DNA of 58,160 bases from a virus. Its lineage: Duplodnaviria; Caudoviricetes. This document shows, in pieces, positions 10,323 to 50,069 of the stretch. The stretch spans positions 1 to 58,160 of IMG/VR virus record IMGVR_UViG_3300032898_000006. One strand, given 5' to 3'. Positions within the stretch are counted from its first letter, which is position 1, and every line of letters starts with the position of its first letter. Made by a program: the position numbers and the translations under genes. The notes below the pieces were generated by a model. The model did not search any database. It was not told the DNA's origin and was given only the letters and a program-made list of their open reading frames with translations.

Positions 10323-11525
10323 ATGGAGCAGATCTCGAAGCGGCTGTTCAATTGGGCGTCGATCCTTGAGCCGAACACCCGCGAGCAGGCGGAGCGGACC
10401 GCGTCGATGCCGTTCATCTGGCCGCACCTCGCACTGATGCCGGACGCCCATCTCGGCAAGGGCGCGACCGTCGGGTCGGTCATCCCGACGCTCGGCGCGA
10501 TCATCCCCGCCGCGGTGGGAGTGGACATCGGGTGCGGAATGTGCGCCGTCCGCACCCAGCTCACCGCCGAGGACGTGCGAAGCCGCGGGAACCTCGCCGC
10601 GCTGAGGGAGTCGATCGAGAAGGCGATCCCGCTGTCGGCCGGCCACTACAACACGGCGCTGCGGGACAGCGAGACCGAGAGGCGCGTCGGCGAGTTGTTC
10701 ATGCTGGACGGCGCCTGGTCCGCGGAGAGCATCGCGCCGAACTGGAGCCTGCAACTCGGCTCGCTCGGATCGGGGAATCACTTCATCGAGATCTCTCTCG
10801 ACGAGCTCGACCGCGTATGGCTGTTCCTGCACAGCGGAAGCCGCGGGGTCGGCAACAAGCTGGCCGTCAAGCACATCAAGATCGCCCTCGAGCAGTGCGA
10901 GCGCCGGTGGATCACCCTTCCCGATCCCGATCTCGCCTACCTGGTCGAGGGCGACCTGCAGTTCTCCGAGTACCTCTGCGATCTCCGCTGGGCGCAGCAT
11001 TTCGCGCTCCTGAACCGCGAGGAGATGATGCACCGGGTCATCGGCTGCGTCGCCGATTGGTCCGGCGAAACCGCGCAGCAGCTGGAGACGGTCAACTGCC
11101 ACCACAACTACACCGAGCAGATGTCCGGCGACCTGCTCGGCCAGTGGAAGCGGCCGAAGAACGCGCACGGCCACGTGTGGCTATCCCGCAAGGGCGCGAT
11201 CGACGCCACCGAGGGCACGCCGGGCCTGATCCCCGGATCCATGGGCACCCGTTCCTACGTGGTCGAGGGGCGCGGCAACCCGCTCTCGCTCAACTCCTCG
11301 CCGCACGGCGCAGGCCGCGAGTACAGCCGCTCAGCGGCGCGTAAGACGTTCACCCGCGAGCAACTCGACGAGGCGATGAGCGGCATCGAGTGGGGCCGCT
11401 CCGACGCCTTCCTCGACGAGATCCCCCGGGCCTACAAAGACATAGATGTTGTGATGGCCGACGCCGCGAGCCTCGTCGAGATCAAGCACACGCTGCGGCA
11501 GATCATCAACGTAAAGGGCGACTAG
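10323..11525 (+). CDS. rtcB: RtcB family RNA 2',3'-cyclic phosphate/3'-P-5'-OH ligase
   Basis: MPDAHLGKG, VGVDIGCGM, LGSGNHFIE, LHSGSRG, CHHNY, SRKGA, IPGSMG, SSPHGAGR, DEIP.AYKDI, INVKG. Confidence 0.97.
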   Translation: MEQISKRLFNWASILEPNTREQAERTASMPFIWPHLALMPDAHLGKGATVGSVIPTLGAIIPAAVGVDIGCGMCAVRTQLTAEDVRSRGNLAALRESIEKAIPLSAGHYNTALRDSETERRVGELFMLDGAWSAESIAPNWSLQLGSLGSGNHFIEISLDELDRVWLFLHSGSRGVGNKLAVKHIKIALEQCERRWITLPDPDLAYLVEGDLQFSEYLCDLRWAQHFALLNREEMMHRVIGCVADWSGETAQQLETVNCHHNYTEQMSGDLLGQWKRPKNAHGHVWLSRKGAIDATEGTPGLIPGSMGTRSYVVEGRGNPLSLNSSPHGAGREYSRSAARKTFTREQLDEAMSGIEWGRSDAFLDEIPRAYKDIDVVMADAASLVEIKHTLRQIINVKGD

Positions 11526-14553: not shown

Positions 14554-16148
14554 GGTTTGATTTTCCGGGCCTCCGCGCGCTCGAGAAGCATCGCGTCGAG
14601 GACCGCGACGGGGGAGCGGGGCGACAGCGCGAGGCGCGCGTCGAGCGCCCTCTCGTGCTCCGCGGCCATCATCGCGGCGAGCTCCTCCCTCATGTTGCCG
14701 GTCACGTGACGGTAGGCTCCCGACACCCCGGGGATGTCGTGCCGCAGGTGCGTCTCGGCCATGATGTGCGGGATCCGGTTCCCCTCCATCAGCGTCCGCA
14801 TCGAGTGCCGGGCCATCAGGTGCGGGGTCAGGCCCGGGGCGACCGGCTCCCACCGCACCGTGGCCCGGCTGATCGCCCGCGGCCCGCGCAGCCGGGTCCC
14901 CGGCCACTCGCCGCCGAGCGGCACCGGCCGCTTCGGCAGCCCCCGCCCGGCCGGGGGCAGCTCGCCGGTCGCCGCGGCCTTCACGATGCCCTCGAACGCG
15001 CTGCTGCGCCAGTGCCACGCCGGGTCCGCAGCCAGGGCGCGGCGGGCGAAGCCGGTCGCCGCCGCGGTCTCCTCGACCCGCTTGCGCGCCGCCGCCGATA
15101 TCCCGGCCGCGCCCGTCAGCGCCTTCCGCGCGGTGGTCGGCGACACGCCCGCGATCGCCGCCACGTCGGCGAGGGTCACGGCGCCGGCCGGGGCCCGCCC
15201 GCCGGCGGGGACGCCGAACCCCCGGAACAGGTAGGCGAACCCGTGGCACGGGCACTTACGGGCCGGGCGGGACGCGGCGAACGCCTCGAGCATCGCCGTC
15301 ATGAACGGGGCGAGGATCACGTCCCCGAACGAGTTGTCCTTCGGCGGGCAGCGCAGCAGGCCCCCGGGCGCCTCCGCCCGCATCGTCGCCGCGACGTCCG
15401 TCTCGCCCTCCCTCGCCTGCTGGAGGTCGAGCTGGTGCAGCTGCCACTCCACCCGCAGCCCCTCCGGCCGGAGGTACCGCCGCTCGAGGCCGATGAGCTC
15501 GCCTAGGCGCAGCGCCCCCCAGAACGACGCCTGGCCCATCACGAACTCCTGGTCCTGGCCGGTGAGGATCGCCATCCGCTCGGATATCAGGAGCACGCCA
15601 AGGGCGTCGGTGAACGGCTTCTCCGGGCCGCGGCCCTTGCCCTTGTCCGCCCGCTTGCCGCGGTTCCCCTTCCGGCGCGCCGGGTTCTGGCTAATGATCT
15701 CGGGCACCGCGTCCTCGAGGCAGGTGTGAAGGGTGCCGCGCCAGGTGGCGATGCTCGCGGGCATCTTGCCCCCCTTGCGCTCTTTCATCTCCCAGGCGCC
15801 GATCATCGCCTCGGTGATGTCGGCCAGGCGCACCGCGCCGAACTCCCTGAGGAGGTGATCGTCTAGGTGCCGCCTGCGACCCGCCATCGTCGACCAGGCC
15901 AGGTTCAGCCCCCCGTACCATTCCTCGGCCCACTCGGCGAAGGTCATCTCGGACGCCGGCTTGACAACCCGGCCGTTGCGGACGTCGGACTGACTGTCCT
16001 CGGCGGCGTTCTTCGCGTCCTGCTTGAGGGAGAACCGGATGACGTCGCCGTTCCCGTCGCGGACGCTGACCCAGCCCCCGGCCGCGTCCCTGTACCGGCC
16101 CCGCCAGTAGTCGCCCCTCGGGGACGGCACTCTCTCCGCGTACGCCAT
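14463..16148 (-). CDS. int: tyrosine integrase with inserted LacI-type HTH
   Basis: N-terminal arm domain (YWRGRYRD), TFAEWAEEW, catalytic LRLGE, PPK, TPHLMARH, LRH, GAYRHV. Confidence 0.9.
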   Translation of the reverse strand: MAYAERVPSPRGDYWRGRYRDAAGGWVSVRDGNGDVIRFSLKQDAKNAAEDSQSDVRNGRVVKPASEMTFAEWAEEWYGGLNLAWSTMAGRRRHLDDHLLREFGAVRLADITEAMIGAWEMKERKGGKMPASIATWRGTLHTCLEDAVPEIISQNPARRKGNRGKRADKGKGRGPEKPFTDALGVLLISERMAILTGQDQEFVMGQASFWGALRLGELIGLERRYLRPEGLRVEWQLHQLDLQQAREGETDVAATMRAEAPGGLLRCPPKDNSFGDVILAPFMTAMLEAFAASRPARKCPCHGFAYLFRGFGVPAGGRAPAGAVTLADVAAIAGVSPTTARKALTGAAGISAAARKRVEETAAATGFARRALAADPAWHWRSSAFEGIVKAAATGELPPAGRGLPKRPVPLGGEWPGTRLRGPRAISRATVRWEPVAPGLTPHLMARHSMRTLMEGNRIPHIMAETHLRHDIPGVSGAYRHVTGNMREELAAMMAAEHERALDARLALSPRSPVAVLDAMLLERAEARKIKPVSRISPDHDNAVVSLPTRTGLDLRRDSRA

Positions 16149-16657
16149 CAGCCGCCGCCTTTCTCGTCGCGCTCCCTGATCCTGTCCGCCTCGGCGAGCG
16201 CGAGCTCGGCCGTGCAGTCCTCGATGTCCTCGGCGATCCCGCGGGCGGCCTCGGCGACGCGGGGGAACTCCGACTTCGCGCCGCGCTCCGCGGTGCGCGC
16301 GGCCGCGTCGCGGGCGTCGTCGAGCCGCGCCTTGGCGAGGGCGAGCTCGCGCCACGCCCCGCGAAGCCGGGCGGAGGCGGCGGCGGCCATCTCCCGCTCC
16401 GCCGCCTCCGGGGCCGACCAGGTGAAGCGGTCCGTCGTCACTCCGAGGATCGCCGCGAGGGCCATCGCCTCGTAGAAGGAGACGGACCGGTCGCCCGCCT
16501 CGACTCTGGTGACCGTGTTCTGGTGCCACGGGTAGCCCTGCGCGGCCATGCGCGCGGCGAGTTCCCGCTGGCCCATGCCGCGCCGCTCGCGGGCGGCGCG
16601 GAGGTTCTCGCCGAACGCCTTCTTCTCCGCGAGGAGCCGCTCGTCATCCGATGACAT
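16148..16657 (-). CDS. XRE-family immunity repressor
   Basis: FGENLRAARERRGMGQRELAARM...WHQNTVTRVEAGDRSVSFYEA; divergent from Cro. Confidence 0.85.
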   Translation of the reverse strand: MSSDDERLLAEKKAFGENLRAARERRGMGQRELAARMAAQGYPWHQNTVTRVEAGDRSVSFYEAMALAAILGVTTDRFTWSAPEAAEREMAAAASARLRGAWRELALAKARLDDARDAAARTAERGAKSEFPRVAEAARGIAEDIEDCTAELALAEADRIRERDEKGGG

Positions 16658-16739
16658 GGATCAGACATTACATCGTTATGTGTTCACCACGCATACCGAA
16701 ATGGGATTAGTATCCTCAGTTGTGGTCGGAGGTGATCCT
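16658..16739. promoter_or_regulatory. lysis/lysogeny switch region
   Basis: AT-rich spacer between divergent repressor and Cro-like genes. Confidence 0.6.
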
Positions 16740-16985
16740 ATGACGATATCGGCGGACAGCGCCGTGACGCTAGCGCGCCTGCGCGCAGATGTGGCCAGCG
16801 GCAGGGCCAAGGAGGTCCGGGAACGGGCCCGCCTGTCGCAGGCGGAGGTCGCCAAGGCAGTGGGAGTGACTCAGCCGACGGTGGCCGGCTGGGAGGCGGG
16901 ACGGAAGATGCCGCACGGCGAGCGCGCCGCCCGGTACGCGGACCTGCTCGCGCGACTCGAGCAGGCAGAGCAGGAGGAGCAATGA
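16740..16985 (+). CDS. Cro-like XRE HTH protein
   Basis: VRERARLSQAEVAKAVGVTQPTVAGWEAGRKMP; RBS GGAGGTG. Confidence 0.85.
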   Translation: MTISADSAVTLARLRADVASGRAKEVRERARLSQAEVAKAVGVTQPTVAGWEAGRKMPHGERAARYADLLARLEQAEQEEQ

Positions 16986-17275
16986 CGACGGCAAGGCCAT
17001 CCCCGGAGGAACTCGCCGCAGTCGGCGCCCCGGTTCACTACACGCCCGCCGAGGCGGCGGCCATTCTCGACCCCTCGGGGAAGACGACCGGCTACTGGCT
17101 GCTCAAGCGGGCGCGGAGCGGCCTGTTCCCGTGCACGCGGGTCGGCCGGTCGATCGTGTTCTCCCCGGCGAACCTCGCCGAGATCGCCAGGGGCCTGAAC
17201 AAGCCGGCCGCGCCGCGCACCATCGCGACGGCGGCCTCGAGGTCCAAGCAGCAGAAAAGGCGGAGCGCCGCGTGA
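16982..17275 (+). CDS. excisionase-like HTH protein
   Basis: YTPAEAAAIL...WL.KRARSG.FPCTRVGRSIVFS. Confidence 0.7.
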   Translation: MTTARPSPEELAAVGAPVHYTPAEAAAILDPSGKTTGYWLLKRARSGLFPCTRVGRSIVFSPANLAEIARGLNKPAAPRTIATAASRSKQQKRRSAA

Positions 17276-17403
17276 ACACTCCCACCCTTCCCAACGACGA
17301 CGACACGCTCCCGAACCCCTGGCGACTGGGGCAGCGCCCGGTACGCCGGGCCGAAGACGGGCGATCCCGGTTCCGGACGCGGCTCCCTCGAGAGGCGGCC
17401 GTC

Positions 17404-18234
17404 ATGATCCGCCGGGCCCTCGCCCCGCTGGCCGCGCTCGCCGCCGCCGGCGCGCTGTTCCTCGCCCCGGCCGCGTCCGCGGCGGTCACCCCCGCCGGCG
17501 GCGTCGCCCTCTGGAACCGCCCCGTCTGCGGCGCCGAGTACGTCCCGATCGACATGGGCGCAGGCGACTACTTCAACGTCTACAACGAGCAGGACGGCCG
17601 GTCCTGCGTCTCGGCCGAGGAGCACCACCTCAGCTTCGAGGTCACCTCCCGCGGCGGCTCCGTCAAGGGCTGGCAGTACCCGAACATCAGCAGCGGCTGG
17701 GAGTGGGGCCGCTACACCTGCGCTGACGGGCGATCGGCCTACCCGGCCTCGCCCGGGTCGCAGTGCATGCGCTACCCGGTGCAGGAGAAGGCCGACGGCA
17801 CGCCGCTGACCTCGGTGACGTACTTCCCGCACCTCGCGGCCGGCAACGTCAGCTACGACATCTGGTTCAACCGGACGGACTCCGCGCCGGGCCAGGACGA
17901 CGGCACCGAGGTCATGATCTGGCTCGCGCACCCCGGGGTGAGCATCCCGGCCCGGTCCGTCTGCTGGGACGCCACCATCGGGGGCGTGAAGTACGAGGCG
18001 ATGTGCTGGACGGCGCGCAACGGCGCGACCAGCTGGAACTACGTCGCGTACGTCGCCGTCAGGCAGACCGCGACGCTGCCGCCGACCTGGCTGAACGGCT
18101 TCTTCCGGAACGCCATCAGCCACGGGAAGCTCAGCCCCGACTGGTGGCTGACCGGGATCGATTTCGGGAGCGAGATGAACAGCGGCGGGACCGGGTTCGC
18201 CGTCAAGACCTACATGCTCAAGGACGTGCGATGA
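17404..18234 (+). CDS. secreted GH12 endoglucanase-like glycoside hydrolase (in-frame extension to 17272 possible)
   Basis: Signal peptide; YPNI, NVSYDIWFN, TEVMIWL (nucleophile), WLTGIDFGSE (acid/base). Confidence 0.85.
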   Translation: MIRRALAPLAALAAAGALFLAPAASAAVTPAGGVALWNRPVCGAEYVPIDMGAGDYFNVYNEQDGRSCVSAEEHHLSFEVTSRGGSVKGWQYPNISSGWEWGRYTCADGRSAYPASPGSQCMRYPVQEKADGTPLTSVTYFPHLAAGNVSYDIWFNRTDSAPGQDDGTEVMIWLAHPGVSIPARSVCWDATIGGVKYEAMCWTARNGATSWNYVAYVAVRQTATLPPTWLNGFFRNAISHGKLSPDWWLTGIDFGSEMNSGGTGFAVKTYMLKDVR

Positions 18235-18254
18235 GCGGCGCCGGGGGGAGCAGC

Positions 18255-19883
18255 GTGAACGCTCCGACGCTTCCGAACGACGACACCGTGCCGAACAACT
18301 GGCGGCTAAGGGAGCGCGCGTACACCGGGCCCCATACCGGGCAGCAGCTCGCCGCCATCGACATGCTCGAGGAAATAGCGAGAGCTCAGGCAGTACACGC
18401 CACGACCGAGCTCCCGCATTACGACGGGCCGAGGACGGGGGATCAGCTCGCGCTCCTCGGAACCGGCGAGCGGGGCGCGATCGAGGCAGCGGAGCGGGAG
18501 ATGGCCCCGCGAGGGCGAGGCGCGCATTCCCGGGGTCCGTCGCGACGGAAGCCGTTCCCGTGGGACGACCTCAAGCACCGGGCGCTTGTCGTTGCGGTGA
18601 CCGTGGTCTGCGTCGCCGCGCTCTGGCTGGTGCAGGATTACGCGTGGCCGGGGAAGCCGAGACTGCACGGCACGTTCGCCGAAGTATGGACGTGCACCGG
18701 GCTGCTTTGGCTGGCGCCGCTGCCGGCGTCCGTCTTCAACCTGGTTGGGCTGTTCTGCTACAGGCCCTCGCGGAACCGGCAGAGGGCCGCGGCGATTCCG
18801 CAGGTCGTATGCTGGCGGATCGTCTCCAAGGGGACGAACACGGAGGCGCTGGCCGCGACGATCCGGCGCTGCCGGACGGAGATGAGGGCGGCGCCACTGT
18901 TCCGGTACGTCATCGAGGTCGTCACGGACGTCGAGAACCCGCTGCTGCCGCGCGGGCCGGACGTCGCATACCTGGTCGTCCCCGAGTGGTACCAGACGTC
19001 GAAGGGCTCCCGGTTCAAGGCCCGGGCGCTGCAGTACGCCCTTGAGCACTCGCCGCTGGCCGATGACGCCTGGCTCGTTCATCTTGACGAGGAGTCGCAG
19101 CCGGTGCCGTCCGGAATCCGGGGAATCGCCCGCATGATCGCCGAGGAGGAGGCCACGGGCCGGCTGCGCATCGGCCAGGGCGCGATCGTGTACCACCGGA
19201 AATGGAAGCAGCACCCGTTCCTGACGCTGGCGGACATGCCACGGACGGGGGACGACCTCGGCCGCTTCTACCTCGCCTACCGCAGCGGCGTCACGCTCTT
19301 CGGCATGCACGGGTCGTTCATCGTCGTCCGCAACGACGTCGAGAAGGCCGTCGGGTTCGATTTCGGGCCCGTGGGGTCGATGACCGAGGACGCGTACTGG
19401 GCGCTCTGCGCGATGGAACTGGGTTACCGGTGCCGATGGGTCGACGGCTTCCTCGAGGAGCAGTCGACGCAGGGCATCATGGACTTCCTCAAGCAGCGCC
19501 GCCGCTGGTTCCAGGGCATCGTGAAGGTGTGCCTGCACGCGCCTACGAAGCTCCGCTGGCGGGTGACCTTCGGGGTCAGCACGCTGCTGTGGGCTCTCGC
19601 GCCGCTCGGGATGGCGTACACGCTCGCGCACCTGGTCGTCGGCGGCGGAGTCGGCCCCGCGGTGAAGGTGCTCGCCGACGTGGCCCTGGCGGGCTGCGTC
19701 ACGATCCAGTTTGTAGGGCTGCAGGTGAACCTCGACGAGCACGGGATCATCGAGCGGCCGAGGCGTTTCCTCTGGTACGCCCTGTCCCTGCTGAGCATCC
19801 CGGCCGCCGGGCTGCTGGAGGCGGCCAGCGTCGCGTACGCCATCATCAGGCCGAGCAGCGGCTTCCACGTGGTGGAGAAGTGA
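18255..19883 (+). CDS. membrane GT2 glycosyltransferase, Egghead/BRE-3 beta-1,4-mannosyltransferase-like
   Basis: FKARALQY, WLVHLDEES, GMHGSFIV, GSMTEDAYW, DFLKQRRRWFQG, N- and C-terminal TM helices, FHVVEK end; alternative start 18231. Confidence 0.85.
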   Translation: MNAPTLPNDDTVPNNWRLRERAYTGPHTGQQLAAIDMLEEIARAQAVHATTELPHYDGPRTGDQLALLGTGERGAIEAAEREMAPRGRGAHSRGPSRRKPFPWDDLKHRALVVAVTVVCVAALWLVQDYAWPGKPRLHGTFAEVWTCTGLLWLAPLPASVFNLVGLFCYRPSRNRQRAAAIPQVVCWRIVSKGTNTEALAATIRRCRTEMRAAPLFRYVIEVVTDVENPLLPRGPDVAYLVVPEWYQTSKGSRFKARALQYALEHSPLADDAWLVHLDEESQPVPSGIRGIARMIAEEEATGRLRIGQGAIVYHRKWKQHPFLTLADMPRTGDDLGRFYLAYRSGVTLFGMHGSFIVVRNDVEKAVGFDFGPVGSMTEDAYWALCAMELGYRCRWVDGFLEEQSTQGIMDFLKQRRRWFQGIVKVCLHAPTKLRWRVTFGVSTLLWALAPLGMAYTLAHLVVGGGVGPAVKVLADVALAGCVTIQFVGLQVNLDEHGIIERPRRFLWYALSLLSIPAAGLLEAASVAYAIIRPSSGFHVVEK

Positions 19884-19891
19884 CTCCCGCG

Positions 19892-20815
19892 ATGAGGCTG
19901 TCCCGGCTGTCCGCGGTGGCCGTCACGGTGGCGATCCTCGCGGGCTGCTCTGCCGCCGGGGCGCAGATGCAGTCTCCGGTCCGCGCGCAGGGCTCTTCGC
20001 GGGGCTCGATGCTGTCGGGGGTGTACGAGCCGGACAACCCGGGGTCCTACGGGCAGGTGGCCTCGTTCGCCGCGGCAACAGGGCTGCATCAGGACATCGC
20101 CGTGTACTACAGCGCGTGGGGGAAGCCGTTCGCCTCCGCGTTCGCCGAGCAGTCGCACGCTCAGGGCACGACGGTCCTCGTGCAGCTCAACCCGGCCCAC
20201 GGGGAGGTCGGAGCCGTCGCCGCCGGCAGGCAGGACTCGTACCTGCGGTCGTACGCGGAGCAAATCAAGCGGCTTCGCTTCAATGTCATCGTCAGCTTCG
20301 GTCAGGAGATGAACGGCAACTGGTACCCCTGGGGCCAGGGATACGTGTCGCCGGCGAGCTTCATCAGCGCATGGCGGCGGGTGGTGTCGGTCTTCCGGGC
20401 GGCCGGAGCGTCGAATGTGATCTGGCTCTGGGACGTTAACTCCAACTTCACGGGCGGCTATCCGATCTCGCCGTGGTGGCCGGGAGCGAACTACGTCACA
20501 TGGGTCGGCGTGGACGGCTACTACACGCGCCCGCAGGACACGTTCGCCAGCGTCTTCGGCTCGACCATCACCTCGATCCGGGCGCTGACGAGCAAGCCCG
20601 TCCTGATCGCCGAGACTGCGGTCGGCCCTGACTCCGGCGCGATGCGCGCGGCGCAGGTACGCGGCCTGTTCGCCGGGGTGAAGGCCGATCACCTGCTCGG
20701 CTTGGTCTGGTTCGACCAGAAGCAGGACGACGGGTCGTATCACCAGGACTGGCACATCGAGGATGACCCGGCGGCTCTGGCCGCGTTCAGGGCGGCAGTG
20801 AAGGGGTTCGGGTGA
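19892..20815 (+). CDS. GH26 beta-mannanase-like lipoprotein
   Basis: Lipobox LAGC; GQEMNGNWYPW, WPGANYVTWVGVDGY, KPVLIAET, VWFD. Confidence 0.9.
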   Translation: MRLSRLSAVAVTVAILAGCSAAGAQMQSPVRAQGSSRGSMLSGVYEPDNPGSYGQVASFAAATGLHQDIAVYYSAWGKPFASAFAEQSHAQGTTVLVQLNPAHGEVGAVAAGRQDSYLRSYAEQIKRLRFNVIVSFGQEMNGNWYPWGQGYVSPASFISAWRRVVSVFRAAGASNVIWLWDVNSNFTGGYPISPWWPGANYVTWVGVDGYYTRPQDTFASVFGSTITSIRALTSKPVLIAETAVGPDSGAMRAAQVRGLFAGVKADHLLGLVWFDQKQDDGSYHQDWHIEDDPAALAAFRAAVKGFG

Positions 20816-21171
20816 ACGTCCCGGTCCTCGTCCTCGCCGTGCTGAGCGTCATCAGCGCATGGCTGTGCGGCAATGCCGTCGGTCGCAGGCAGTACGCCAA
20901 GGCGGCGACGTGGGCTGCGGGCACCGCCGTCATCCTCGGCGTGGCCTCGGCCATCGACGCGGCGGCCGGGCAATGGCCCGCAGCCGCGATATACGGCGCG
21001 GGCACCGCAGGCTGGGCTTGGATCGCGTGGAAGAACTGGCGCAGGAGGAAGCGGAAGCGGTCGCTGAAGGCGCTCGGCCACAGGGCGCGGGCGAGGCTCG
21101 CCGCGATGCTCCGGAGCATGCCGAAGCCGGGGCCGGCCCTCCGCCCCGTCCCGCAAGGGGCTCGGGCGTGA
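20812..21171 (+). CDS. small membrane protein (about 3 TM)
   Basis: Hydrophobic helices followed by a basic WRRRKRKR tail. Confidence 0.65.
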   Translation: MNVPVLVLAVLSVISAWLCGNAVGRRQYAKAATWAAGTAVILGVASAIDAAAGQWPAAAIYGAGTAGWAWIAWKNWRRRKRKRSLKALGHRARARLAAMLRSMPKPGPALRPVPQGARA

Positions 21172-21254
21172 ACGTCCCGGCTCCGGGGCCACTGACCGTT
21201 TGACCGGGCCCGGCGGTAACCGGGCGGATTTCACTAAAGGAAAGGAAGCAGAAG

Positions 21255-21455
21255 ATGAGCGCAAGGACACCCGAGGCGGAGCCGCTACTGACCCCCGCTG
21301 AGGTCGCCACCATGTTCCGTGTGGACCCGAAGACGGTCACCAGGTGGGCGAAGGCCGGGAAGCTGACGTCCATCCGGACGCTAGGAGGTCACCGGAGGTA
21401 CCGGGAGACCGAAGTGCGGGCGCTGCTGGCCGGTATTCCGCTGGCGCGGCCCTGA
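21255..21455 (+). CDS. bldC: BldC developmental regulator (MerR-like wHTH)
   Basis: ARTPEAEPLLTPAEVATMFRVDPKTVTRWAKAGKLTSIRTLGGHRRYRETEVRALLAGIP, matching the canonical BldC sequence as I recall it. Confidence 0.95.
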   Translation: MSARTPEAEPLLTPAEVATMFRVDPKTVTRWAKAGKLTSIRTLGGHRRYRETEVRALLAGIPLARP

Positions 21456-21804
21456 AGAGAGCTGGAAGTGGCCCGCGCCCGTCTAGAGCCAACCATCCGG
21501 GCGCGGGTCCTTGGGAATTTCGATCAACAGGAGAAATGATGCCATGCCCCGCCCGCCGATGCTCCCTCCCGGGCTCCCGGGCCCGAGACCCCGGCCGACA
21601 CCGCCGCCCGAGCCGGAACCCGGCCCCGTGACCGGCGACGACGAAGAGGAAAGCGAGGCCTCCGGCGATTGCTTTTTCCCTGCCGGCTGCCGGTGGATTG
21701 ACGGCTGCAACGCGGAGAGCGTTTGCATTGGCCGCGACTACTAGAACAACCCCGACCCGGCCGGCGTTCCGGCCGAAGACGACGACGAAGGAACGGACGA
21801 GCAG

Positions 21805-22311
21805 ATGTCCCTGTATGAGATAGCGGTCGCGGACGGCCACCAGGACGAGCGCGCGGCGCTGCTGCTGCCCGTCCTCGGGAACCCGGTGGTTCAGCGTTTC
21901 CGGGATTGCTGGGCCGAGCGGACCCCGTACGGCCTCGTGATCGCGGTCTACACCCGCACCGGGGGCCCGTACCGCGGGTGCTCCTGCGCGGAGGAAGGCA
22001 GCGCCCACGCCCCGGGGTCCTGCTGGGCCGCGTGCAACGAGGCGCTCGCCGGTCATCCCCTGTACCTGCGCGACGACGACGACACGCTCGACGCGACGTA
22101 CGCGACGTTCCGGTTCCGGGTCCCCGAGGCGCGCCGCGAGGCCCTCGCGCCGATCGCCGTCGACCCGGTCGACACGAGCAAGCGGTGGCAGGAGGCGATC
22201 GACCGGGTGAGCCGCGGGGAGATCCGGCCCGCCGAGACGGCCATGGGCGACCAGCTCGCCGCGATGCTCTCCGACGCCTCGCCGGGCGCGCCGAGAATCA
22301 TGGAGGTCTGA
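21805..22311 (+). CDS. hypothetical phage protein
   Basis: RFRD..VYTRTGG..R..HPLY..D.DD..D.TYATF.F. Confidence 0.65.
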   Translation: MSLYEIAVADGHQDERAALLLPVLGNPVVQRFRDCWAERTPYGLVIAVYTRTGGPYRGCSCAEEGSAHAPGSCWAACNEALAGHPLYLRDDDDTLDATYATFRFRVPEARREALAPIAVDPVDTSKRWQEAIDRVSRGEIRPAETAMGDQLAAMLSDASPGAPRIMEV

Positions 22312-22841
22312 TGCCCGGAATCGCAGTCCCGGAGAGGCCCGCGATGTGGCTCGGGCACTACAGCCTCCAGCTGCTTTGGCTCGCAGTCGCAGTCACGGTC
22401 GCCGACGACGCCACGGGCCAGACGAGCAGCGTCCTGGAATGGGCCGGCGTTGCCGCGTTCACGCTCTGGATTGTGGCGTCGATGGCCGACGGGGGCGTTC
22501 ACCGGGAGCGACTGTGCGAACGGTGCGTCGCGGCGACCCCGCTCGACCCGCAGGCTTCCGTCGGCCGGTGGAGGCGAGCCCTGCGGCTGCACCACTCCCG
22601 CAAGGCCACGGGCGTCATGTGCGGCGCGGTTCTCGCCGTCTCCATCGCGGCCGACTCCTTCCGCCACAAGCCTGCGTGGGCGCTCGCGGCCAGCGCGCTC
22701 GTATGGGTCGCCCTCGGGGCGCTGAACGTCATCCCCCTGCAGCACCGGCGGTTGTACCCGTGGTGCCCGTTTTGTCATTGGGGCGACGGCGGGGAGGGAG
22801 AGGTGTCCCCGGATGTCCCGGCCCCGGCGATGAGCCGCTGA
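22311..22841 (+). CDS. membrane protein with H/C zinc motif
   Basis: About 4 TM; HRERLCERC and HRRLYPWCPFC. Confidence 0.65.
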   Translation: MPGIAVPERPAMWLGHYSLQLLWLAVAVTVADDATGQTSSVLEWAGVAAFTLWIVASMADGGVHRERLCERCVAATPLDPQASVGRWRRALRLHHSRKATGVMCGAVLAVSIAADSFRHKPAWALAASALVWVALGALNVIPLQHRRLYPWCPFCHWGDGGEGEVSPDVPAPAMSR

Positions 22842-22961
22842 CCCCGGGAACGCAAGGCCGCCCCCTCGCCAGCCGGAACCATCGGCTGGCGAGGGGGCGG
22901 GGAGCGCATCGTCAATTACAGCGGCAAGGGCGAGCATAGCGAGACAGGCGCCGTAATCCGG

Positions 22962-22990
22962 TTCGCCTCGCGGGATCGCTCCTGTATCGT
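22962..22990 (+). promoter_or_regulatory. sigma70-type promoter for the Y RNA/Ro60 locus
   Basis: TTCGCC-N17-TATCGT ending 8 nt before the first RNA unit. Confidence 0.45.
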
Positions 22991-22998
22991 GCTAGTGT

Positions 22999-23072
22999 CC
23001 TTCCCGGTGCGCCTGGCCGCGCTTACTTCTTATGCAAAGGCGACAGCGCGGCCGACTCTGATCTCAGGAAGG
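22999..23072 (+). ncRNA. Y RNA-like unit 1 (minimal)
   Basis: CCTTCC/GGAAGG terminal stem, shared CCCGGTGCGC..TACTTC..GATCTC motif, inner stem GGCCGCGCT/AGCGCGGCC. Confidence 0.7.
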
Positions 23073-23090
23073 CTTCACGACCTAGCCTCA

Positions 23091-23231
23091 CCCCCGGTGC
23101 GCAGGTATCGGTTTACTTCATTGGGAACTGAGGGTTGCGGGTTCGAATCCCGCCCGCCCGGCTCGCGTCGGGCGGTAGCGCAACTTGGTAGCGCATCAGT
23201 ACGAATCGCCGTACCGTCCCGATCTCGGGGG
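23091..23231 (+). ncRNA. yrlA: YrlA-type Y RNA unit 2, permuted tRNA-Pro(UGG)-like
   Basis: T arm GCGGG-TTCGAAT-CCCGC precedes closed acceptor stem CCGCCCG/CGGGCGG, then D arm TAGCGCAACTTGGTAGCGC; shared terminal stem. Confidence 0.85.
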
Positions 23232-23252
23232 CTTTTACAACTGAATCGACGC

Positions 23253-23379
23253 ACCTCCCGGTGCGCGGGCACGACGGATACTTCTCGCCAGGGCGCAAGC
23301 CCATCAGATCGGCCAGCACGAGATAGCTGGCAGCCACCCCCGGGTGGTCAATCCGGACGCCGACTTGAACTCGGGGGGT
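23253..23379 (+). ncRNA. Y RNA-like unit 3 with three-hairpin domain
   Basis: ACCTCCCG/CGGGGGGT terminal stem, shared motifs, hairpins GGGC-GCAA-GCCC, GCCAGC/GCTGGC, GCCACC/GGTGGT. Confidence 0.7.
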
Positions 23380-23391
23380 CATCGTCTTTGC

Positions 23392-23528
23392 GTGCCCGGT
23401 GCGCAGTTGCGGCGTTCTTCGCCTGTCAAGCGGGTGGTCGCGGGTTCGAATCCCGTCGCCTGGCGGAAGCCTGGTGTAGCTCAGCGGTAGAGCACCTACG
23501 ATTGCCGCGGCGACTTGATCTCGGGCAC
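23392..23528 (+). ncRNA. yrlA: YrlA-type Y RNA unit 4, permuted tRNA-Asp(GUC)-like
   Basis: GTGCCCG/CGGGCAC stem; CTGTCAA loop, T arm GGTTCGAATCC, GGAA-capped acceptor stem, D arm TAGCTCAGCGGTAGAGC. Confidence 0.85.
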
Positions 23529-23569
23529 AACCGACGAAGGCCCCTCCCAGCATGAGAGGGGCTTTTCGC

Positions 23570-25135
23570 ATGTCACGGTTCAACACGACGGGTACGCGGC
23601 CGACAGCGGCCAGCCCGGTAGCCACGGAGGCGGTTCCGTCCGGCGTAACGCACGAGGGGGCGCCCGGCTTCGCCCGCGACAGCAAGAGCGAGCTTTTCCT
23701 GCTAGCGGTCAGCCACATGGGCGACGGGTCGTTCTACGAGTCCCAGCCCGACCGGGATACCCGCTTCCGCTCGCTGGTCCACGGCGTCGCGATGAACGAC
23801 CCGGAGTGGATGGCCCGGTTCGTCCCCTGGCTGCGGAACGGCGCGAACATGCGCACCGCGTCGGTGGTCGCGGCGGCCGAGGCGGCGAAGGCCCTCCTGA
23901 TCGACGAGAAGCCGGGCGGCCGGAAGATCGTCGCGTCGGCGCTGCAGCGCGCCGACGAGCCGGGCGAGCTGCTCGCCTACTGGACTTCCCGTTACGGCCG
24001 GGCGGTTCCCAAGCCGGTCAAGCGGGGCGTCGCCGACGCGGTGGCGCGGCTGTACGACGAGTACGCGCTGCTGAAGTACGACACCGCCTCGCACGGCTAC
24101 CGGTTCGGCGACGTCATCGACCTGTGCCACCCGGACGCGGCCGAGCCGTGGCGCGGCGACCTGTACCGGCACGCCCTCGACCGGCGCCACAACCGGGACA
24201 ACGCGGTGCCGGACTCGCTCGCCATGATCCGGGCCAACGCGATGCTGCGGGCGCGGGGCGCCGAGGACCCGGAGGCACTGCTCGACGCCGGGGCGCTGAA
24301 GGCCGCCGGGATGACATGGGAGGACGCCCTGTCGCTCGCCGGGAGCAAGGCGCCGAAGCGGGAGCTGTGGGCGGCGCTTATCCCGTCGATGGGCTACATG
24401 GCGCTGCTGAGGAACCTGCGGAACTTCGACGACGCCGGGGTGCCGGATGCTGTCGCCGAGCAGGTCGCCGCGCGGCTGTCCGACCCCGCGCAGGTGGCGA
24501 AGTCCCGGCAGTTCCCGTTCCGGTTCCTGTCCGCCTACAAGGCGGTCCCGTCACTCCGGTGGGCGTACCCGCTGGAGAAGGCGCTCGGCCTGTCGCTCGC
24601 GAACGTGCCCGAGATGAAGGGGCGGACGCTGGTCCTCGTCGACCGCTCCGGGTCGATGTTCGATGGCATCTCAGCGAAGTCGGGACTCAACCGCGCCGAC
24701 ACGGCCGCGCTGTTCGGGGCGGCGGTCGCGCTGCGGTGCGAGCACGCCGACCTTGTGCAGTTCGGCTCCTCGAGCGCTCCCGTCCAGTTCCGGGGCGCCG
24801 AGTCGGTGCTGAAGATCATCGGGCGGTTCGGGAACCTCGGCGGCACCTACACGGCCCAGGCGGTGCAGCAGCACTACCGCGACGGCTTCCATTCGCGCGT
24901 CGTCATCATCACCGACGAGCAGACGGCGGCCTACTCGGGTGACCCGCTGAGCCTGATCGCGGGGCGCATCCCCGTTTACACGTGGAACCTCGCCGGCTAC
25001 CAGTACGGGCACGGGCCGTCCGGCGGCGCCAATCGGCACACTTTCGGTGGTTTGACGGACTCGGCTTTCAAGCTCATCCCCCTGCTGGAGGCGGGCCGAA
25101 ATGCCTCCTGGCCTTGGGAAATGTCCGTAGAATAG
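23570..25135 (+). CDS. rsr: Ro60/TROVE domain RNA-binding protein with vWA domain
   Basis: TxEGAPGFARD.KSELFLL, QRADEPGE, LLKYD, MGYMALLRNLRNF, SRQFPFRFLSAY, vWA LVDRSGSM, GGT, IITDEQ. Confidence 0.95.
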   Translation: MSRFNTTGTRPTAASPVATEAVPSGVTHEGAPGFARDSKSELFLLAVSHMGDGSFYESQPDRDTRFRSLVHGVAMNDPEWMARFVPWLRNGANMRTASVVAAAEAAKALLIDEKPGGRKIVASALQRADEPGELLAYWTSRYGRAVPKPVKRGVADAVARLYDEYALLKYDTASHGYRFGDVIDLCHPDAAEPWRGDLYRHALDRRHNRDNAVPDSLAMIRANAMLRARGAEDPEALLDAGALKAAGMTWEDALSLAGSKAPKRELWAALIPSMGYMALLRNLRNFDDAGVPDAVAEQVAARLSDPAQVAKSRQFPFRFLSAYKAVPSLRWAYPLEKALGLSLANVPEMKGRTLVLVDRSGSMFDGISAKSGLNRADTAALFGAAVALRCEHADLVQFGSSSAPVQFRGAESVLKIIGRFGNLGGTYTAQAVQQHYRDGFHSRVVIITDEQTAAYSGDPLSLIAGRIPVYTWNLAGYQYGHGPSGGANRHTFGGLTDSAFKLIPLLEAGRNASWPWEMSVE

Positions 25136-31981: not shown

Positions 31982-33394
31982 CTAATACCACAGGCTCGTG
32001 TTCGTGTCCCAGTAGAAGGTCCGCGATGAGTTCGCCGCGATCGTCGCGAGGACGCCCGCCGCGACGTTCGACGTCGCCTTCGCCGCGAACGTGATCTGCC
32101 CGGAGCCCTCGTTCCCGACGGCGAGCAGCTGCCCCGAGTAGGCGCCCGTCGCGAGGATGACCCCCGTGACCGCGCCGCTGTTCGTGACCGGCCAGTAGCC
32201 GGGCCCCGTCGGGCTGATCGTCCCGTTCGACGCGATCGTCTGCGGCGTGTTGTAGTCGCCGAGGGCGATGCCGCCCTGGAAGTTGAAACTCGTCGCCCAG
32301 TTGTTCGTCGCGCTGGCCAGGACCGCGTCGCCCATGATGAGACCGTAGAAGCTGAAGTTCCCGTTCTTGTTCGACGCCGTGAACGAGTAGGAGGTCCCGG
32401 CGAAGTCCATCGCCCCGGACCCGTTGAACCACTGGTTGGACGTGCTGCCGAACTGGATCGTGTACGGGGCGGTGTGGGCGTTGTCGTCCAGTTCCACGCC
32501 GAAGCTGACGGTCCCCTGGAACATGGCCGAGTAGCCGTCGGAGTTGCTCCCCGTGATGAGGAGCACCGCGTACTGGCTGGCCGCCGTCAGCATGTTGCCC
32601 TGGATGATCATCCCGGCGGCGTCGCCGATGCCGGCCCCGCCCTGCAGGACCACCCCGTTGCACACGCCGGGGGACGCCCCGCCGATCGCGTTGTTGATGT
32701 TGTGGATGATCGAGTTCCGGTCGAACGACCCGGTCGCGGTCCCCGCGGAGCCGGCCGAGTTGTCGTAGACGACCTCGCAGCCCTCGGTGTAGATGACGCC
32801 CCGGAGCTCCTCGGTCCAGTAGTACCGGTTATCGAACCAGACGCCCTTCGCGGCCGTCCCCGCGCTGTTGAAGACCCGCACGTCGATTTGCCATTGGAAG
32901 ATGTCCCCGACGCGCAGCGCGTAGGACCCGTTGGTCCCGTTGATGAGGAAGGTGCCGCCGAGGAAACCGCCGCCGGAGTAGTTCCGGGGGATGATGCTGG
33001 AACTGTCGTAGATGTTGAACAGCGGCCCCGCCGACGTGCCGACCGCGTTGAACGTGGCGCCCCACGCGAGGATCCACACCGGCTTGGCGACGCTGATCGT
33101 GACCGCGCCGGGCACCAGGTGCCACTCTCCCGGCAGCAGGGTGATCGCCCCGCCGCCCGACGGCAGCGCCGACACCGCCGCGCTGATCGCCGCCGCGTCC
33201 TTCGCCCCGGTCGTGTCGCCCGACGGCCACACGTAGCCGGGGAGCAGCTGCGACAGGGTCATCTGCTTGTTGGACCCGCCAGCCCCGGCGGGAGGGGTCG
33301 ACGTGTCGTTGGGATCCACGACGGGGAGGATGACCGCGGGCAGGACCGAAGCGCTCGCGATCGCCGACAGCCCCGTTATCTCGTAGTTCGTCAC
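31982..33394 (-). CDS. tail spike / beta-helix receptor-binding protein
   Basis: PSGDTTGAKDAAAISAAVSALPSGGGAITLLPGEW pectate-lyase-like start; N/G-rich. Confidence 0.7.
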   Translation of the reverse strand: MTNYEITGLSAIASASVLPAVILPVVDPNDTSTPPAGAGGSNKQMTLSQLLPGYVWPSGDTTGAKDAAAISAAVSALPSGGGAITLLPGEWHLVPGAVTISVAKPVWILAWGATFNAVGTSAGPLFNIYDSSSIIPRNYSGGGFLGGTFLINGTNGSYALRVGDIFQWQIDVRVFNSAGTAAKGVWFDNRYYWTEELRGVIYTEGCEVVYDNSAGSAGTATGSFDRNSIIHNINNAIGGASPGVCNGVVLQGGAGIGDAAGMIIQGNMLTAASQYAVLLITGSNSDGYSAMFQGTVSFGVELDDNAHTAPYTIQFGSTSNQWFNGSGAMDFAGTSYSFTASNKNGNFSFYGLIMGDAVLASATNNWATSFNFQGGIALGDYNTPQTIASNGTISPTGPGYWPVTNSGAVTGVILATGAYSGQLLAVGNEGSGQITFAAKATSNVAAGVLATIAANSSRTFYWDTNTSLWY

Positions 33395-47500: not shown

Positions 47501-47901
47501 GCCTTCGCCGCCACGGCGGCGTCCCGCTGCGCGGCGGTCAGCCGCCCGCTCGCGGCGATCAGCGCGTCAGTCGACGCCGTGTCGTCATCCGCCGCCCCGG
47601 CCGCCGCCCGCTGGGCGTCCAGCAAGGCCGTCTCCGCGTCCGCCAGGGCCTTAGCGGACTCGGCCGCCTTCGCCTGCGCGGCGTCCACCCGGGCCGTCGC
47701 CAGGTCCAGGGCGTCCGCCCCGGAGGCGGTATTCAGCAGCGACTCGTCGATCGCGTCGCCCGCGCCCCTGGCGGTCTCCGCCGCCTTCGTGGCGGACTCA
47801 CTGAACTTGCCGAGAGACTCGTCGATCTTCGCGAAGATCTCCGACGCCGCGTCCCTGGCCTCGAGGATCGCCAAAATCGTGAAGGACTCGGCGCCTGCCA
47901 C
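44593..47901 (-). CDS. tape measure protein
   Basis: 1102 aa Ala-rich helical protein; Trp-periodic repeats; FLPFSPAKQGPLSG motif. Confidence 0.93.
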   Translation of the reverse strand: MAGAESFTILAILEARDAASEIFAKIDESLGKFSESATKAAETARGAGDAIDESLLNTASGADALDLATARVDAAQAKAAESAKALADAETALLDAQRAAAGAADDDTASTDALIAASGRLTAAQRDAAVAAKAVSDAQKVQSDTAVAAAAKNDEAAASTVAVKDASDAGGISLGTMGKVAGITALGLGVAAAVMVKAAGNFQDSTTHLVTDAGESASKLGMVQAGILQVSTATATSASDITNAMYHIESGGFHAQTGLDMLKIAAEGAKVGGADLDTVSKTLVGTMNAYYGSTTNASNATQRSASMMNEIIATVGAGDMKMQDLASSMSSVAPLAAKVGLSFAQVGGAIATMTSQGMSAQQSTQDLANTIRSLSNPNSVAIGEMNQLGLNSQTVAKNLGKEGLTGTIGELTTAITTHMGKSGEVLMNAFNQSTSAAQDAQTMLAKLPPSIQSVSKSYLDGGTSYTTWYNATKGLPLTAKTMADQFASVAGKAHGFNSLLTAGGPAAQTYTAALAKMMGGATGLNTALMLSGKSSGTFANNVKVIGDAAKKSGGQVDNWSTIQGTFNFKISQAKTGIENTGIAIGSALLPAVTAVMSAVTKVIIPIAEWTAKHKTLTEVIFASVTAIAAVVAVIAIAKKAFDAVSGAVKTVQATLKALGIISKETAGTQAASAESAAAAQEEAATEAAGVQEGAAEEAAAANDEAAAESSASWLAAAGRQIASAASWVAGQAVKVASVVASNVAAAATTAGAWIAAGAQQVAGAAVWVAQTIAKVAMIVASNVAGAAITMAAWIAANAAMLLGIGLIVLAVIAAVVLIVKYWSDIEKAAVAVWDAIVAGAKAAWSGITAFVKAIWSNITSDIRAAHALIMKIVNAAWSYVKFLITGDISEIRSVLGWFGKLGSLFRGWWDDATGAVRDEAGDMLSFVKSIPGRILSALGDVGSLLYSAGAKIIQGLINGVKSMIGSIGNAIGSVASTIKSFLPFSPAKQGPLSGAGDPSNSGKSIARKLAQGITAGKGEVVAAAHALAGSVTTGTSGSLGGLALSAAGGGAGGAGTGGPVININVYGNTVMSDSDVNILVNRIGKAVATKILPQAGVKVRMS

Positions 47902-49628: not shown

Positions 49629-49694
49629 GGCGCTCCTCCTTTGCTCTGGTGCGTGCGTGGGCGGGGCGCGTGCCGGGAATGGCATGCTGGCGGC

Positions 49695-50069
49695 ATGGAC
49701 GAGACAGGCGAGATCGCGGCGTTCTACGCGGCGAGGCTCGACGAGGAAGAGGCGCGAGCATGGGCCGTCCACGACGTGGGGCAGTGCGACGCGCTCTTGT
49801 ACGCGGAAGACATGGCGGACGCGGCTCGCCGTGACCCTGACTGCAACTGCGGCCGCCCTGCCCGCACGCTGCGCGAGATCGCGGCCAAGCGGCGCATCGT
49901 CGCCGACTGCGAGCGGGCCATGAGCAGGCAGCCGGGGTTCAACGCCGGCCATGCCCGGTACGGGTCGCCGTTCCCGGCGCCACACGCCAACCTGGCGTTC
50001 CGGACGCTCATGTCGCTCGTGTCCGCCTACGACAAGCACCCGGAGTACAAGCCGGGGTGGAAGCCGTGA
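49695..50069 (+). CDS. DUF6221-like protein
   Basis: IAAFYAARLDEEE...PARTLREIAAKRRIV...YDKHPEYKPGWKP. Confidence 0.8.
   Translation: MDETGEIAAFYAARLDEEEARAWAVHDVGQCDALLYAEDMADAARRDPDCNCGRPARTLREIAAKRRIVADCERAMSRQPGFNAGHARYGSPFPAPHANLAFRTLMSLVSAYDKHPEYKPGWKP

Follow-up and report, generated by a model that had tools for sequence, protein, structure and literature searches.

A phage-borne cassette of a putative membrane glycan synthase and two predicted exported hydrolases, placed behind cro and xis

BcsA with BcsZ, and CslA-GlxA-CslZ of Streptomyces, are synthase-dependent polysaccharide systems with a dedicated hydrolase; CslZ belongs to glycoside hydrolase family 6 (GH6), and GlxA is a copper oxidase. 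Viruses are also known to change the surface of the cells that they infect: the hyaluronan and chitin synthases of Chlorella viruses are early genes that coat the infected algal cell with a new polymer; the modules of serotype-converting phages (gtrABC, O-acetylases) decorate an existing O-antigen from the prophage; and the Llp lipoprotein of phage T5 is made early in lytic growth. Both the synthase with a dedicated hydrolase and the phage-borne change of surface glycans are known designs. Here we describe a locus that may join the two, found in the IMG/VR virus record IMGVR_UViG_3300032898_000006, a stretch of 58,160 bases that we refer to as the window. Four + strand genes at 17272-21171, which we call the cassette, encode a GH12 hydrolase, a membrane-integrated glycosyltransferase of family 2 (GT2), a GH26 lipoprotein and a small membrane protein, and follow directly upon cro-like and excisionase-like (xis) genes.

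With moderate confidence, we read this cassette as a self-contained, synthase-dependent beta-glycan module, probably for a beta-mannan-like product, which forms exchangeable cargo within a phage's early rightward operon and rewrites the surface of the infected cell; within this reading, we infer the processivity of the GT2, its sugar donor, the polymer, the timing and the benefit to the phage. Literature searches did not find the combination in print (an Egghead-like GT2 of synthase fold with GH12 and GH26, coupled to cro and xis, in an actinophage-like genome and with a duplicated tag).

The synthase and its hydrolases

The GT2 (550 residues; alternative start, GTG 18255) begins with a disordered cytoplasmic stretch of about 110 residues, which is followed by two transmembrane helices, a GT-A domain, an interface helix and, at the C-terminus, three more transmembrane helices; the protein contains five hydrophobic segments. 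Its AlphaFold model (pLDDT, the predicted local distance difference test, 80.7) was compared over residues 114-550 with solved structures using VIA-align, which gave high scores for BcsA (Z 22.7), yeast Chs1 (22.3) and the hyaluronan synthases (HAS) of a Chlorella virus (22.2) and of Xenopus (22.0), and also for the archaeal PcManGT (PDB 6yv7; Z 21.1, 316 of the 345 PcManGT residues aligned). SpsA, which is soluble, aligned to the GT-A domain alone (residues 191-447; Z 15.8), and Foldseek matched the model to BcsA with an E-value of 1.9e-11. As modelled, the GT2 has the fold of the membrane-integrated synthases, with transmembrane helices packed as in the solved ones.

The synthase class is defined by a D, a DxD-type, a TED and a QxxRW motif. 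We located VTD (231-233), HLDEE (284-288), HGSF (360), TED (385-387), QRRRW (422-426) and FHVVEK (545) in the GT2; HLDEE, TED and QRRRW are invariant in an alignment of 26 family sequences, and HGSF and FHVVEK likewise lie in its invariant columns. A preliminary description of this DNA, made from the letters alone, had named HLDEE, GSF, QRRRW and FHVV.K, all of which were found, and had compared them with animal Egghead/BRE-3 mannosyltransferases. That comparison stands as a lead: many GT2 homologs carry the automatic Joint Genome Institute (JGI) names 'egghead protein' or 'beta-1,4-mannosyltransferase', and an arthropod 'egh-like' cluster is the third-nearest neighbour of the GT2 in the ESM Atlas (score 0.98, 217 of 256 features shared). 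The profile and structure-prediction checks proposed in the same description agree with its family assignments and with a membrane synthase: the GH12, GT2 and GH26 genes all match their Pfam families above the curated cut-offs (Table 1) and the GT2 model has the fold described above; likewise, the catalytic motifs that it called intact are present, both those of the GT2 and the glutamates of the two hydrolases.

A separate observation concerns the disordered N-terminus of the GT2, which holds two copies of Y-x-G-P-x-T-G-x-x-L within residues 30-73 (18318-18450). The pattern [YFW]xGPx[TS]G occurs in the N-termini of six of the 120 listed GT2 homologs, the window protein included; that these repeats might be a phospho-threonine docking site is pure speculation.

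The GH26 protein (start at GTG 19880 or ATG 19892) has the lipobox LAGC, with the cysteine at residue 23. Among solved structures, its best match was the Clostridium thermocellum lichenase CtLic26A (2bvd; E 8.5e-26, 94 bits, residues 56-307), followed by a beta-1,3-xylanase (E 1.7e-9, 40.7 bits) and by mannanases (best E 5.7e-7, at most 32 bits). E143 (QEMNG) aligns with HEANG and E246 (IAETA) with IAEFA of 2bvd; by their CtLic26A positions, we take these two residues to be the catalytic glutamates of a clan GH-A barrel. The name 'mannan endo-1,4-beta-mannosidase' that the JGI gives to GH26 homologs is automatic, and the nearest solved relative is the lichenase. By its sequence, the protein looks active and exported. 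Relatives of it were found in two of 50,697 GenBank phage records.

The GH12 protein is 320 residues long when read from GTG 17272; the source gene call begins at ATG 17404 and yields 276 residues. A 44-residue N-terminal tail precedes a hydrophobic segment (signal or anchor, with the site ASA-AV), which is followed by the catalytic domain, and the DNA of the tail region has a G+C content of 0.77/0.59/0.82 by codon position, a coding-type pattern. The Pfam match covers residues 191-314 only. Matches to solved GH12 enzymes span E-values of 1.8e-13 to 3e-9, the nearest being endoglucanases of Streptomyces and Rhodothermus (1.8e-13 to 1e-11), with Cel12A of Streptomyces sp. 11AG8 (1oa4) the best at E 1.8e-13. 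E213 (EVMIW) and E301 (GSEMN) align with the equivalent glutamates of 1oa4 and are presumably the catalytic pair, the former as the nucleophile in E-[IV]-M-I-W and the latter as the acid/base near the C-terminus. Across 27 GH12 sequences, E213 and four cysteines are invariant, and E301 is conserved in at least 90%. The protein belongs to a clade of 128 divergent proteins, mostly from soil metagenomes; it, too, looks active and exported, to judge from these conserved residues and the segment ahead of the domain. A role as a virion depolymerase was considered and ruled out by the signal or anchor segment and the early-operon position. Searches (tblastn) with GH12 and with GT2 against the same 50,697 phage records gave no match.

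To relate the cassette to its kin, we collected GT2 homologs in two ways. A word-indexed search returned 575 hits, the listed ones being 50-60% identical over a core of about 430 residues. Profile scans yielded 54 loci from GTDB, in Actinomycetes, Patescibacteria, Alpha- and Gammaproteobacteria and others, and four from IMG/VR, where a scan with the single protein had given no relative. Among these 58 loci, a GH26 gene lies within 6 kb of the GT2 in six (L003, L007, L008, L020, L028, L057; a weak seventh, L052, was left out of the count), and a gene of GH113, a mannanase family, in seven (L021, L032, L033, L034, L035, L054, L056). Since GH26 and GH113 recur beside this GT2, we consider synthase plus hydrolase to be the core module. 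Furthermore, eight GT2/GH26 homolog pairs agree in source and in the length of their longest contig; the two closest GT2 relatives are among them, and the closest pair joins a GT2 of 75% identity (P0002) to a GH26 of 81% identity (P0392). As indirect evidence, this suggests that GT2 and GH26 travel together in the nearest kin of the window. The claim of the preliminary description that a membrane synthase with secreted hydrolases resembles bacterial beta-glycan loci is borne out by these 13 of 58 loci and by the scores of Z about 22 for BcsA, HAS and Chs1.

Several of these loci deserve mention in their own right. Members of the GT2 family from Actinomycetes, from Saccharibacteria and other Patescibacteria, and from acidophilic Alphaproteobacteria (Methylovirgula, Roseiarcus) are still about 50% identical to one another, with neighbours mostly unrelated between loci; this suggests frequent horizontal transfer. 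At L007:767-12401 and L003:2761-8161, a cellulose-synthase-like GT2 and a GH16 are followed by the Egghead-like GT2 and a GH26, and the L007 cluster also has a further GT2, a PMT_2-like protein and a second GH26. This multi-synthase, multi-hydrolase bacterial cluster is present on an IMG/VR contig as well, and no description of it was found in the literature. In Blastococcus mobilis (L008:4375-9667), the GT2 and a divergent GH26 lie about 0.9 kb from a phage-type integrase (PF00589, E 1.3e-25), and the pair may be on a mobile element. Literature searches found no described product for bacterial members of the GT2 family; excerpts of PMC12691653 and PMC13390465, on Actinoplanes, treat other glycan clusters and give no function for it.

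Operon, exchangeable cargo and phage context

Four-base overlaps of the form ATGA or GTGA join each pair of neighbours from cro to the small gene: cro/xis (16982), xis/GH12 (17272), GH12/GT2 (18231), GT2/GH26 (19880) and GH26/small gene (20812); in the first, the xis start overlaps the cro stop. An AT-richer divergent intergenic region of 82 nucleotides precedes the cro-like gene, which has a GGAGG ribosome-binding site. On the + strand between 16740 and 21171, a terminator search returned two weak sites only, of 5 and 6 pairs, and none at a gene end; a promoter scan of 16000-23600 returned no sigma-70-type site, actinobacterial promoter types being outside its models. The simplest reading is that the genes from cro to the small membrane gene form one translationally coupled operon transcribed from the cro promoter. 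The preliminary description had placed tightly packed genes directly behind xis in a Cro/Xis operon, and both points agree with the five overlaps, the matching coordinates, the excisionase (phrog_1840) and HTH_3 matches, and the repressor and regulator families found there.

Translational coupling of the cassette to cro and xis makes it likelier that the genes are expressed at the lytic switch than in the lysogen, as far as gene arrangement by itself can tell. Third-position G+C content is 0.90-0.98 in the cassette genes and 0.88-0.97 in the backbone genes, and given this likeness the cassette bears no sign of decay. A decaying chromosomal capture, the case that the preliminary description had set against its own idea, is ruled out by the intact frames, the motifs and the codon signal.

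The cassette is exchangeable cargo between the int-cI-cro-xis block and the small membrane gene. This became evident from a related phage in another wetland sample (run X2), whose contigs have a depth of about 51-54 and which keeps int-cI-cro-xis and the small gene. One X2 contig matches 14305-17301 with 222 differing letters and then continues with about 570 letters unlike the window; a second matches 20840-21171 and 21273-21412. The summed X2 depth over 17876-19777 is 17-29, against 51-54 on the contigs of the related phage, and no match to the GT2 of at least 80% identity was found at that phage's own depth. The bins over GH12 and GH26 are dominated by other contigs, and the comparison of cargo is one of the GT2 region. 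As judged from these contigs, the small membrane gene is conserved backbone and stands outside the exchangeable cargo. Its product matched no family of Pfam, PHROGs or NCBIfam, and the Atlas gave no informative neighbour; PHROGs had no family for any of the four cassette proteins.

The 5' ends of both GH12 and GT2 are covered by a direct repeat of about 79 nucleotides, whose copies (repeat families D1 and D2) are 77-83% identical and differ by a 3-nucleotide indel. The peptide encoded by both, VNxPTLPNDD..PNxWRL, is confined to these two places across all six frames of the window. Over the first 19 aligned codons, counted by hand, six of the nine differing codons are synonymous, and this majority favours selection on the tag peptide. 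The likeness of the X2 relative to the window breaks off at 17301, exactly where the ...PNDD codons end. An acidic, proline- and aromatic-containing tail ahead of a membrane segment is present in at least seven of the 120 listed GH12 homologs; the count is a lower bound, since gene calls often begin at a later ATG, as does the source call here. A degenerate DNA pattern for the tag matched no stretch in IMG/VR. The tag could be a targeting or regulatory element, a recombination joint, or both. Tentatively, and as a possibility rather than an expectation, we propose that GH12 and GT2 share a portable tag that serves their co-targeting or co-regulation and marks the point of cargo exchange, within a phage make-and-trim glycan system that comes on at the lytic switch and in which a single-subunit, beta-mannan-like synthase and two cell-bound hydrolases re-coat the cell.

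Table 1. Features of the window, with those of the cassette listed first
Feature	Position	Strand	Match or note
GH12 hydrolase, divergent	17272..18234	+	PF01670 Glyco_hydro_12, 40.7 bits (cut-off 27)
Membrane-integrated GT2, 550 residues	18231..19883	+	PF13632 Glyco_trans_2_3, 73.1 bits (cut-off 27)
GH26 lipoprotein	19880..20815	+	PF02156 Glyco_hydro_26, 39.1 bits (cut-off 20.2)
Small membrane protein, 119 residues, 2-3 hydrophobic segments, basic tail	20812..21171	+	no family
Direct repeat copy 1 (ribosome-binding site, GTG, about 22 codons)	17262..17340	+	encodes VNTPTLPNDDDTLPNPWRL
Direct repeat copy 2, 5' end of the GT2 gene	18245..18320	+	encodes VNAPTLPNDDTVPNNWRL
cro-like helix-turn-helix regulator, first gene of the rightward operon	16740..16985	+	HTH_3, E 3.9e-12
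Excisionase-like HTH_17 protein (xis)	16982..17275	+	phrog_1840 excisionase, E 1.4e-5; HTH_17, 20.7 bits (below the cut-off of 27)
cI-like repressor, same orientation as the integrase	16148..16657	-	HTH_31, HTH_3; phrog_3 transcriptional repressor, E 1.6e-10
Tyrosine integrase with inserted LacI-type helix-turn-helix	14463..16115	-	phrog_1 integrase, E 3e-21; Pfam Phage_int_SAM_3 and LacI helix-turn-helix
Tailspike-like right-handed beta-helix protein, putative polysaccharide depolymerase, tail module	31982..33394	-	Pfam Phage_depo_C, 26.5 bits (cut-off 25)
Tape measure gene	44593-47901		phage context
Minor tail gene	48645-50039		phage context
RtcB / Ro60-like / YrlA region	10323-11525, 23129-23198, 23433-23496, 23552-25135		

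The window has a G+C content of about 70%, and the record is rated 54% complete. We take the source to be a temperate, siphovirus-like and actinophage-like phage of a high-GC soil or wetland bacterium. Among public runs, one wetland metagenome is the sole full holder of the DNA, and no RNA run is listed for the region; neither cassette nor tail-region DNA matched any of the GenBank phage records. As host queries, the minor tail protein gave no match in 401 genomes of one class, and GH12 a weak match in one of four genomes. The hyphal host implied by the preliminary description gained no support: nothing in this wetland metagenome DNA identifies Streptomyces or any hyphal bacterium, and these searches returned no phage or host relative.

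The tailspike-like protein bears on the benefit of the cassette. Its model (pLDDT 83.4) is a right-handed beta-helix with a Phage_depo_C end, which VIA-align matched to ORF18 of Geobacillus virus E2 (Z 22.6), gp51 of Klebsiella phage Kp7 (22.1) and the Sf6 tailspike (20.1), and also to polysaccharide lyases, with Z scores of 20-22.6 overall. Foldseek gave no match to this model at E 0.001 or better (best E 1.2e-3), a PDB sequence search gave none, and the protein has 781 relatives. This putative tailspike-type depolymerase suggests that the receptor of the phage is a surface polysaccharide.

Other features of the genome lie outside the cassette. The integrase has a LacI-type helix-turn-helix (PF00356, 27.8 bits) inserted at residues 314-356, and the Pfam Phage_integrase catalytic model did not match it. 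The phage also encodes RtcB (phrog_1075, E 4.5e-136) and a Ro60/TROVE-like protein (phrog_850, E 2.4e-50), just 5' of whose gene are two partial matches to YrlA, a Y RNA-like family (44.2 and 33.5 bits; gathering score 69), and the window thus looks like it holds a phage-borne set of Ro60, Y RNA and RtcB. At gathering thresholds, Rfam had no match in the whole window. Contig depth is very high over 23421-23457 in each of the three runs, as expected of a conserved tRNA-like piece. On one viral contig with a lone GT2 relative of 37% identity (L004:2946-7059), RtcB lies about 1.6 kb upstream of that gene, echoing the presence of RtcB and the GT2 family in the window.

The polymer, the mechanism and competing explanations

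GT2 enzymes invert anomeric configuration, and the linkage made here should therefore be beta. As to the sugar, the evidence tips slightly towards a mannan-type chain, because of the kinship of the GT2 to Egghead and PcManGT, the GH113 partners and the general make-up of GH26. Beta-glucan stays open because GH26 is nearest to a lichenase, the GH12 relatives are glucanases and the larger clusters contain GH16; a glucomannan would, speculatively, reconcile the two sets of observations. Passages of PMC9032380 describe GH113 genes near GT2 genes similar to mannosyltransferases and regard GH113 as probably mannan-specific. Of the surface mannan or glucan proposed in the preliminary description, the mannan has accordingly gained indirect support from the GH113 pairing, and the glucan is kept open by the likeness to CtLic26A.

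The mechanism that we propose would begin when the cI-like repressor is absent or lifted, upon infection or induction, and a single transcript from the cro promoter would then be translated, in coupled fashion, into Cro, Xis, GH12, GT2, GH26 and the small membrane protein. The GT2, embedded in the host membrane and with a cytoplasmic GT-A domain, would use a host nucleotide sugar to build a beta-linked hexose chain, most likely beta-1,4-mannan-like, with beta-glucan or glucomannan possible, and would export it through its own transmembrane helices. On the outer face, the GH26 lipoprotein would trim or release the chain, like the dedicated hydrolases of other synthase systems, and the exported GH12 would assist in trimming or clear resident host beta-glucan. 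The rewritten glycan surface might then block further adsorption, so that superinfecting phages are excluded and progeny are not wasted on infected or lysing cells. Such a block is the likeliest benefit, given that this phage, with its tailspike-type depolymerase, probably recognises a polysaccharide on the cell surface.

A number of observations weigh against this mechanism. First, the link to BcsA is weak by sequence alone (profile E 0.088; NCBIfam CelA 19 bits, cut-off 699). Second, GH12 has neither a GT2 nor a GH26 beside it at any of 81 loci of its relatives and lies within 6 kb of the GT2 at none of the 58 GT2 loci, on account of which we regard it as an add-on here. Third, the kinships of the two hydrolases, GH12 to glucanases and GH26 to a mixed-linkage glucanase, are awkward for a mannan. 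Fourth, 45 of the 58 GT2 loci have no hydrolase partner, and the 141 neighbouring open reading frames in these 45 include no recurrent Pfam family (at most three members each); three IMG/VR viral contigs (L004-L006) likewise have a GT2 alone, 32-37% identical, amid genes of early type (RtcB, an exonuclease, YopX and a LysM protein among them). Fifth, neither Egghead nor PcManGT is known to be a polymerase, and their fold is also compatible with the transfer of a single sugar to a lipid or a lipoglycan; three listed homologs (P0064, P0068, P0072) are fused to GtrA (PF04138), a hint of lipid-linked sugar chemistry and against a free polymer. Finally, the timing is read from gene arrangement, and an internal promoter of an actinobacterial type, outside the scan, may be active in lysogens.

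This last point leads to the main rival, which is the reading of the preliminary description and which we consider unlikely, if less so than the other alternatives: lysogenic conversion, in which the module would be expressed from the prophage, by an internal promoter or by leaky rightward transcription, and would serve receptor masking, biofilm formation or aggregation. The cassette adjoins the integration and immunity module, it is moron-like, exchangeable cargo between conserved flanks, and the tailspike probably reads a glycan; the O-antigen-modifying genes of serotype-converting phages sit in a similar place. However, the four-base overlaps run unbroken to cro and xis, genes that the repressor normally silences in a lysogen, and the sigma-70-type scan of 16000-23600 provided no promoter-like site for separate expression.

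Somewhat less probable still is a non-processive, Egghead-type GT2 that would add one or a few beta-linked sugars to a glycolipid, a lipoglycan or a lipid carrier and thereby alter the receptor, the hydrolases being only loosely related to it. The Egghead-like automatic names and Atlas neighbours, the near end-to-end alignment with PcManGT (a mannosyltransferase by its PDB title), the GtrA fusions and the GT2 genes that stand alone are all in keeping with such an enzyme. Conversely, two endo-hydrolase families recur beside the GT2 (GH26 six times, GH113 seven), which is hard to explain without a polymeric product, and the full-length structural matches to channel-forming synthases include the transmembrane helices.

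We regard it as improbable that the cassette is an aid to egress or lysis, in which GH12 and GH26 would degrade a host extracellular beta-glycan matrix and the GT2 would be incidental or regulatory. Both hydrolases are predicted to be exported and look active, and family scans of 46 window proteins revealed no endolysin, in a record rated as little more than half complete; yet the genes lie in the early operon beside cro and not in a late or lysis module, an intact and strongly conserved synthase stands between the hydrolases, and the GT2-GH26 pairing is also found in bacterial chromosomes outside any phage context. Least probable of all, by a little, is that these are auxiliary metabolic genes whose hydrolases break down environmental plant polysaccharides to feed the host, as parts of PMC6460857 propose for the viral carbohydrate-active enzymes of mangrove soil, where a complete phage genome (MK557849.1) carries two GH26 genes: here and in MK557849.1 the hydrolases adjoin a membrane GT2 synthase, the lipobox and the membrane segment would make both window enzymes cell-bound rather than freely secreted, and Pfam detected no carbohydrate-binding module in either.

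Returning to the self-contained beta-glycan module that we prefer, its implications would be several. Phages are known to decorate and to cut host glycans; to bring a membrane polymer synthase along with hydrolases that match it, all linked to cro and xis, would be another strategy, and would give simple access to surface remodelling in infected Gram-positive, high-GC bacteria. Beyond phages, the GT2 belongs to a large conserved bacterial family, whose GH26 and GH113 partners predict a bacterial beta-mannan. Some soil-viral 'mannanase' and 'endoglucanase' genes, read as carbon-cycling auxiliary genes in parts of PMC6460857, may likewise belong to glycan-building cassettes.

Comparison with described systems

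A comparable arrangement is that of Caudovirales GX15bay (MK557849.1), one of the two phage records with a GH26 relative, in which a membrane GT2 of QxxRW type is directly followed by two GH26 genes, the first of them encoding a product 27.8% identical to the GH26 of the window over 80% of the query. Unlike the window, GX15bay has no GH12, and its GT2, which matches Glyco_tranf_2_3 and Chitin_synth_2, is unrelated to ours by sequence (BLASTP E 0.24). Hydrolases of this type are read by the authors, in the parts of PMC6460857 that deal with them, as aids to polysaccharide breakdown.

The GT2 shares PF13632 with Egghead/BRE-3, and an 'egh-like' cluster ranks third among its Atlas neighbours, a likeness of names and Atlas position rather than of direct alignment; to PcManGT (6yv7), it aligned almost end to end. 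The acceptor of Egghead is glucosylceramide, which is not expected in bacteria. Unlike Egghead, the bacterial GT2 family has invariant blocks of its own and recurrent neighbours from mannanase families, and these neighbours suggest a polymer, which is not known for Egghead.

Like the modules of serotype-converting phages, the cassette places surface-glycan genes beside integration and immunity genes, in a phage with a putative glycan-reading tailspike. In contrast to gtrABC, however, its GT2 is not GtrB-like (GtrB ranked 41st in Foldseek, E 1.7e-5, over the GT-A domain), and GtrA, GtrB and type-specific Gtr had no match among the four cassette proteins in Pfam, PHROGs and NCBIfam. Instead, the cassette looks like a complete synthase with hydrolases, coupled to genes of the lytic switch, and the expression proposed here differs in its timing from classical lysogenic conversion.

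With BcsA/BcsZ and CslA-GlxA-CslZ, the cassette has in common a GT2 with TED and QxxRW motifs and a BcsA-like fold, beside predicted exported endo-hydrolases. It differs from them in that (i) Pfam found no BcsB-like, PilZ or GlxA-like partner among the cassette proteins; (ii) the GT2 is of another lineage, as its low CelA score indicates; and (iii) the hydrolases are GH12 and GH26 rather than GH8 or GH6, and the module lies in a phage early operon. Thus, of the likeness to Streptomyces cslA/cslZ proposed in the preliminary description, the design stands, while Pfam found no CslA-, GlxA- or CslZ-type domains in the four cassette proteins and the CelA score (19 against 699 bits) speaks for a different lineage.

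Finally, the HAS of Chlorella viruses is, like the GT2 of the cassette, a virus-encoded membrane GT2 of the same fold, found among early genes. The two are of different GT2 lineages (8-9% identity in the structural alignment), and HAS belongs to a eukaryotic virus and has no linked hydrolases, whereas the cassette lies in the cro/xis operon of a temperate bacteriophage. If the make-and-trim system tentatively proposed above is real, the cassette would be a bacterial-virus counterpart of the hyaluronan and chitin coats of the chloroviruses.

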